Positions 7,798-8,253 of a DNA stretch of 64,000 nucleotides are shown piece after piece; the first letter of the stretch is position 1, and each line of letters opens with the position of its first letter. The position numbers and the translations under genes were made by a program. The DNA is from Escherichia phage vb_EcoM_bov9_1, in sequence record MT884006.2. One strand, 5' to 3'. The notes below the pieces were generated by a model that did no database searches, was not told the origin of the DNA, and saw only the letters and a list, made by a program, of their open reading frames with translations.

Positions 7798-8253
7798 TTA
7801 TTTTAAATCGTCTGCCCAATCGAGTTTAAGAGGTTCTTTGTATTCACGATCTAATACGACCGGAATTTGTACATCACCGCTAAATGATAAGGGCCCAACA
7901 TTATAAGACAATGTTATATGCGGTGTGTAATCATCAAAATCATGTGTAGCACCTAGTGCCCGCGCATACATGTGTCGACAGCGCAGATATTCAGAATCTA
8001 GCACAAGTACAAGAGTCGATCCATCTTGTGTTTTCCATACTTCTAAATGTCCAGAAGAAGCTACTTCAAAACTTCCACTCGATGGAACATATGGAACATT
8101 TACTCTCGAATAACATATGGTCGAATGAATTTTTTCTCTAGGAACTGGATTAGGAACACGCAAAGAGCGCTGAAGTTCTTCCAGCGCATCAAGTGTTAAT
8201 TCTGAAAACTTAGCTGCTACATAAAGACCCGTTGAAAAGTCTTTAAATTCCAT
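7798..8253 (-). CDS. acb1: 2H phosphoesterase, gp57B/Acb1-like (anti-CBASS cyclic-oligonucleotide phosphodiesterase)
   Basis: Two H-x-T/S-x motifs (HSTI and HITL) spaced as in 2H phosphoesterases; 151 aa; sits immediately upstream of 57A as T4 57B does. Confidence 0.7.

Follow-up and report, generated by a model that had tools for sequence, protein, structure and literature searches.

The gene at positions 7798-8253 of the DNA analysed here, a stretch of 64,000 nucleotides of Escherichia phage vb_EcoM_bov9_1 (MT884006.2; referred to as the window), raises the question of whether its product is an enzyme that destroys the signals of the CBASS immune system, or an enzyme acting on RNA ends, as the label "RNA ligase" carried by many of its relatives would have it. 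The original prediction had placed here a 151-residue open reading frame (ORF) for a gp57B/Acb1-type 2H phosphodiesterase, recognised by two H-x-T/S-x motifs, HSTI and HITL. The ORF list reproduced its length and coordinates exactly, and located the gene on the minus strand, a detail absent from the prediction. The gene and its catalytic and lid segments lie as follows.

7798-8253, minus strand: acb1 (gene 57B) coding sequence, 151 amino acids plus stop codon, with an ATG start and the stop codon at 7798-7800 (ORF list).
8116-8127, minus strand: catalytic motif 1, H43-S44-T45-I46 (H44/T46 in T4), codons read from the raw sequence.
7909-7920, minus strand: catalytic motif 2, H112-I113-T114-L115 (H113/T115 in T4), codons read from the raw sequence.
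7801-7824, minus strand: C-terminal lid, residues 144-151 (145-152 in FBB1 and T4), including W146 (T4 W147), the same as in T4.

Both motifs were confirmed codon by codon, and a scripted scan of the 151-residue protein found no H-x-[ST] sites other than HSTI and HITL. The two H-x-[TS]-x motifs that mark the 2H phosphoesterase superfamily are thus present, at residues 43-46 and 112-115, although the pair by itself is weak evidence of membership. At least two Hx[ST] sites arose in 16% of 20,000 shuffles of the protein (at least two HxT sites in 2.2%), and two Hx[ST] sites also occur in 3 of the 31 ORFs of 100-250 amino acids in the window. A pair found this often is not beyond chance, and we rejected it as a proof of identity when taken alone. 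Since the motif pair alone is not significant, the identification of the product as Acb1 rests on full-length homology, which lies well outside what chance would give.

We found that the product is identical to residues 2-152 of T4 gp57B at all 151 positions (T4 gene taken from NC_000866), and that the two genes differ in five codons, all of them synonymously. The protein matched the Pfam family PF23474 (Acb1) with a score of 202.7 bits (E=2.6e-60), the cut-off being 27. Residues 8-149 fell on positions 1-144 of the 144-position profile, which is a full-length match above the curated cut-off of the family. The best match among solved structures was Acb1 of Erwinia phage FBB1 (PDB 7t26_A, E=4.1e-62; 7t27 has the identical sequence), with 68.1% identity over 141 aligned residues and a single gap of one residue. 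The fold of 7t26_A is described by its depositors as a compact 2H phosphoesterase fold, and the 68% identity over 141 residues supports, on sequence grounds, the same fold for the product, in which pseudo-symmetric lobes of beta-sheet would bear the two motifs. Both H-x-T motifs are in register with those of FBB1 Acb1 (HTTI, HITL) and of 9q2g (HVTV, HLTL). The alignment to T4 Acb1 that the original prediction had called for likewise placed both motifs, with their catalytic histidines, in register, and the shift that was to count against the prediction was not seen.

The residues known to matter for Acb1 function were compared one by one. Hobbs et al. (PMC9117128) defined the active-site tetrad as H44/T46/H113/T115, the base-stacking residues as Y12, W74, F107 and W147, the residue specific for adenine as E141, and a C-terminal lid, residues 145-152, which closes over the ligand. 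All nine published functional residues (9/9) are present in the product at an offset of -1: H43/T45/H112/T114 align with the T4 tetrad and with that of FBB1, and Y11, W73, F106, W146 and E140 correspond to the stacking and adenine-reading residues of T4. Residues 144-151 are identical to the lid of T4, and the two genes end at the same stop codon. Taken together, these comparisons indicate that the product is Acb1, the cyclic-oligonucleotide phosphodiesterase of the 2H family that acts against CBASS and was first described in T4 as gp57B, a reading to which we give a probability of about 97%. The remark in the original prediction that the gene is not novel was right, as T4 Acb1 has already been characterised; the gene in the window is an intact copy of a known enzyme. 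Homologues of Acb1 were found in 1470 phage records, in 498 of them at 99% or higher protein identity.

T4 57B was found by activity-guided fractionation, and for its product both the cleavage of cyclic di- and trinucleotides and the rescue from CBASS have been shown (PMC9117128). A transposon screen further found T4 57B to be conditionally required on a CBASS-expressing host (bioRxiv 10.1101/2025.11.20.689424). From its identity to T4 Acb1, the protein of the window is predicted to cleave adenosine-containing cyclic oligonucleotides and to rescue the phage from CBASS. The mechanism that we propose is carried over, by identity, from the Acb1 proteins of T4 and FBB1, in which it was demonstrated by others. 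A U-shaped pocket of the enzyme would bind cyclic di- or trinucleotide CBASS signals that include one or more adenosines (3'3'-cGAMP, cUA, cAAA). In this pocket Y11, W73, F106 and W146 would stack on the bases and E140 would read the N6 of adenine, and the C-terminal lid would then shut over the bound ligand. H43, T45, H112 and T114 would carry out a metal-independent acid-base cleavage 3' of adenosine, by way of a 2',3'-cyclic phosphate intermediate. With the signal turned into a linear product, the CBASS effectors would never be activated and the phage would escape abortive infection. Panoptes guard systems restrict Tevenvirinae that carry Acb1, and these phages escape through mutations in acb1 (PMC13577387); by analogy with these relatives, activity of Acb1 on cA3 should expose the present phage to such guards as well.

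The other way to read the gene is as a 2'-5' RNA ligase, or LigT-like RNA repair enzyme, which acts on RNA ends and not on immune signals. This reading has database labels on its side, in that phrog_755 is annotated "RNA ligase" and the RefSeq entry of T4 57B and many phage records say the same, and the protein does show a weak Pfam match to 2_5_RNA_ligase2 (PF13563; E=0.11, 13 bits). That match, however, covers only residues 80-122 and lies far under the 27-bit cut-off, as against the 202.7 bits for the Acb1 family, and the identical protein of T4 degrades cyclic oligonucleotides and counters CBASS in vivo. We consider that the RNA repair reading has almost no chance of being correct, and we rejected the "RNA ligase" label of PHROG and RefSeq because the LigT match is sub-threshold and the activity of the identical protein from T4 has been shown by direct experiment. 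The name appears to be a superfamily-level label older than the work on Acb1. The labels "hypothetical protein" and "RNA ligase", in the record MT884007.2 of a close relative and in many related records, can safely be replaced by "anti-CBASS protein Acb1", and the value of the present finding is that of an annotation correction.

We hold it still less probable that this copy is decaying or non-functional and is kept only by its linkage to gene 57A, as might be supposed from the dispensability of acb1 on hosts without CBASS, from relatives that inactivated the gene to escape Panoptes-type guards (disrupted copies are known from Bas43 and from Panoptes escapers of Bas35) and from the record of phage BYEP02, in which it is split by a 77-nt internal tandem duplication, since the gene in the window is full-length, has neither frameshift nor premature stop, shows no amino-acid change against five synonymous changes relative to T4, and retains all of its catalytic and binding residues. 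In Escherichia phage BYEP02 (OR757454.1) the duplication adds a stop codon, and acb1 is annotated there as two coding sequences; the split may be an artefact of assembly or else a natural inactivation, comparable to those of Bas43 and of the phages that escaped Panoptes. The PCR primers published for acb1 of Bas35 (PMC13577387) match the window exactly on either side of the gene, at 7677-7698 (+) and 8584-8607 (-).

The genomic position of the gene agrees with the reading as Acb1. The original prediction had placed the ORF where T4 has 57B, and this was borne out, as acb1 lies immediately downstream of 57A and gene 1, the upstream gene order being that of T4 (genes 4, 2, 3, 1, 57A, 57B). Between 5000 and 12000, the window matches Escherichia phage vb_EcoM_bov10K1 (MT884007.2) with 100% identity. 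This Tequatrovirus comes from a cattle farm in Hungary; positions in MT884007.2 equal window positions plus 64001. At the corresponding coordinates, that record carries acb1 as the coding sequence QOC57129.1, a "hypothetical protein".

At the 5' end of acb1, the gene meets its upstream neighbour directly.

8253-8495, minus strand: gene 57A, tail-fibre assembly chaperone (ORF list; Pfam GP57, E=5.2e-51).

The TAA stop codon of 57A overlaps the ATG of acb1 in the sequence TAATG (8251-8255, minus strand), which suggests that translation of acb1 is probably coupled to that of 57A through the overlap. In T4, 57A ends in TGA and the annotated start of 57B is the first ATG of ATGATGG, whereas in the window 57A ends in TAA and the first 57B ATG of T4 reads ATA. 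Because of this change to ATA, acb1 starts at Met2 of the T4 protein, the only start available. The gene of the window shows that the second ATG suffices, and this ATG may be the true start of 57B in T4 as well. The resulting form of 151 amino acids, one residue shorter than in the T4 annotation, is expected to be active, as judged from the T4 protein.

On the downstream side, the arrangement departs from that of T4.

7728-7797, minus strand: spacer of 70 nt between acb1 and trna.4, the empty ipI slot (alignment to T4).
7784-7756, minus strand: sigma-70-like promoter, TTTACA-17-TACTAT with an upstream TG (promoter scan).
7542-7727, minus strand: trna.4 homologue, 61 amino acids, hydrophobic, the next gene downstream (100% identity to T4 Trna.4 by tblastn; phrog_1692).
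7157-7549, minus strand: trna.3 homologue, 56% identical to T4 Trna.3.
6346-6870, minus strand: ORF of 174 amino acids between the trna.2 homologue and tRNA-Gln (phrog_2290, E=7e-68).

The ORFs that follow acb1 are, in order, the homologues of trna.4, trna.3 and trna.2 (the last 92% identical to that of T4) and the 174-residue ORF, in place of which T4 has only 97 nt. In T4, ipI lies between 57B and trna.4, whereas in the window 57B is followed by 70 nt and the trna.4 homologue. The product of ipI, internal protein I, inhibits the type IV restriction system GmrSD, and among the counter-defence genes next to 57B in T4, ipI is the best known. When T4 ipI was searched against the whole window by tblastn, no homologue was found (best E=0.7). 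The ipI gene of T4 (L002:5533-5953) is flanked by two copies of a promoter-bearing direct repeat of 54 nt (81% identical), of which only one copy is present in the window. The single copy looks like the outcome of a gain or loss of the ipI cassette by recombination between the repeats. The scan for promoters and terminators over 6200-9400 yielded 15 promoter-like sites against 13.1 expected from shuffled sequences, and 3 terminator-like sites against 1.3, neither being above expectation; the sole site with independent support was the promoter at 7784-7756, which is conserved as the repeat flanking ipI in T4. We also observed that the trna.3 homologue (56%) sits between those of trna.4 (100%) and trna.2 (92%), forming a sharp mosaic boundary within a near-identical block.

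The original prediction had described the region as rich in counter-defence genes, and this was sustained in part. The following gene of the window speaks in its favour.

9907-10731: gene 2, encoding gp2, the DNA-end protector, about 1.6 kb upstream of acb1.

According to the T4 record (NC_000866), gp2 has a role in countering exonuclease V. Also in favour is a homologue of Acb2/Vs.4 in bov10K1 (MT884007.2 60822-61088; L004:8823-9089), about 2.9 kb before the start of the window and 10.7 kb from acb1, which is annotated "hypothetical protein" and is 94% identical to T4 Vs.4 (Pfam Acb2_Tad1_hairpin, E=9e-20). Against the description stand the absence of ipI and the four downstream ORFs, which have no functional match: PHROGs placed the four in families of unknown function only, and Pfam returned no family for them. 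The further suggestion that Acb1 gives context for its neighbours did not hold up for the same ORFs, for which adjacency is all that links them to acb1. The label "early" is doubtful for 57B, as a T4 expression atlas reports 57B/acb1, together with vs.4/acb2, as predominantly middle/late.

Bas37 carries the anti-McrBC gene bas37_0260 in the slot downstream of acb1. It is conceivable, although unlikely in our estimation, that the slot after acb1 is a hyperplastic site for counter-defence cassettes and that at least one of the four downstream ORFs is an unrecognised anti-defence gene. Acb1 itself offers nothing new, and this variable cassette slot is the only potentially novel thread of the locus.

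Several other differences from T4 were observed away from acb1. The tRNA cluster (window 4857-6259, minus strand) differs from that of T4: the order in MT884007.2 is Arg, Asn, Tyr, Met, Thr, Ser, a GIY-YIG homing endonuclease (ORF 5365-6015), Gly, Leu, Gln, and that in T4 is Arg, segB, Ile, Thr, Ser, Pro, Gly, Leu, Gln, plus rnaC and rnaD. The endonuclease occupies a different position in the tRNA array. The segment from denV to e, where T4 carries ipII and ipIII, contains neither gene in bov10K1 (MT884007.2 62673-64126; L004:10674-12127); it lies mostly outside the window, in which the end of gene e occupies positions 1-125. An ORF of 157 amino acids with DUF7412 was found upstream of denV in bov10K1. 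As ipI is missing too, all three internal-protein slots known from T4 (ipI, ipII and ipIII) are empty or differently filled in bov10K1.

Since bov10K1 carries both Acb1 and Acb2, that phage should resist many CBASS systems. From the published Panoptes results (PMC13577387), guards of the Panoptes type are expected to restrict it. Resistance to CBASS and sensitivity to Panoptes are relevant to the prediction of host range or to therapy.

Among known systems, T4 Acb1 (gp57B, NP_049750.1) is the counterpart with the same 151 residues, the same tetrad, binding residues and lid, and the same genomic position after 57A. It differs in an extra first Met in its annotation, by which the numbering of the window protein is shifted by -1, in five synonymous base changes, and in having ipI, not trna.4, downstream. 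Acb1 of FBB1 (PDB 7T26, apo; 7T27, with 3'3'-cGAMP) shares the HxT/HxT pair, the Y/W/F/W stacking residues and the equivalent of E141, all in register; it comes from a phage of another host genus, has HTT in motif 1 where the window protein has HST, and differs in about one third of its residues, mostly outside the functional positions listed above. The divergent Acb1 of PDB 9Q2G and 9Q2Y (165 amino acids) keeps both H-x-T motifs in register, 9Q2Y having Ala where 9Q2G has the first-motif His, and its similarity is marginal (9Q2G, E=0.0044), in an alignment that ends at residue 118, short of the C-terminal lid. The 2H phosphoesterases of the LigT or 2'-5' RNA ligase type (PF13563) share the two H-x-[TS] motifs and give the weak local match around motif 2, and they differ from Acb1 in their substrates, which are RNA ends as against cyclic oligonucleotide immune signals. 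Acb2 (T4 Vs.4), a cyclic-oligonucleotide sponge, is directed at the same CBASS signals as Acb1, but is an unrelated protein and sequesters these signals rather than cleaving them.
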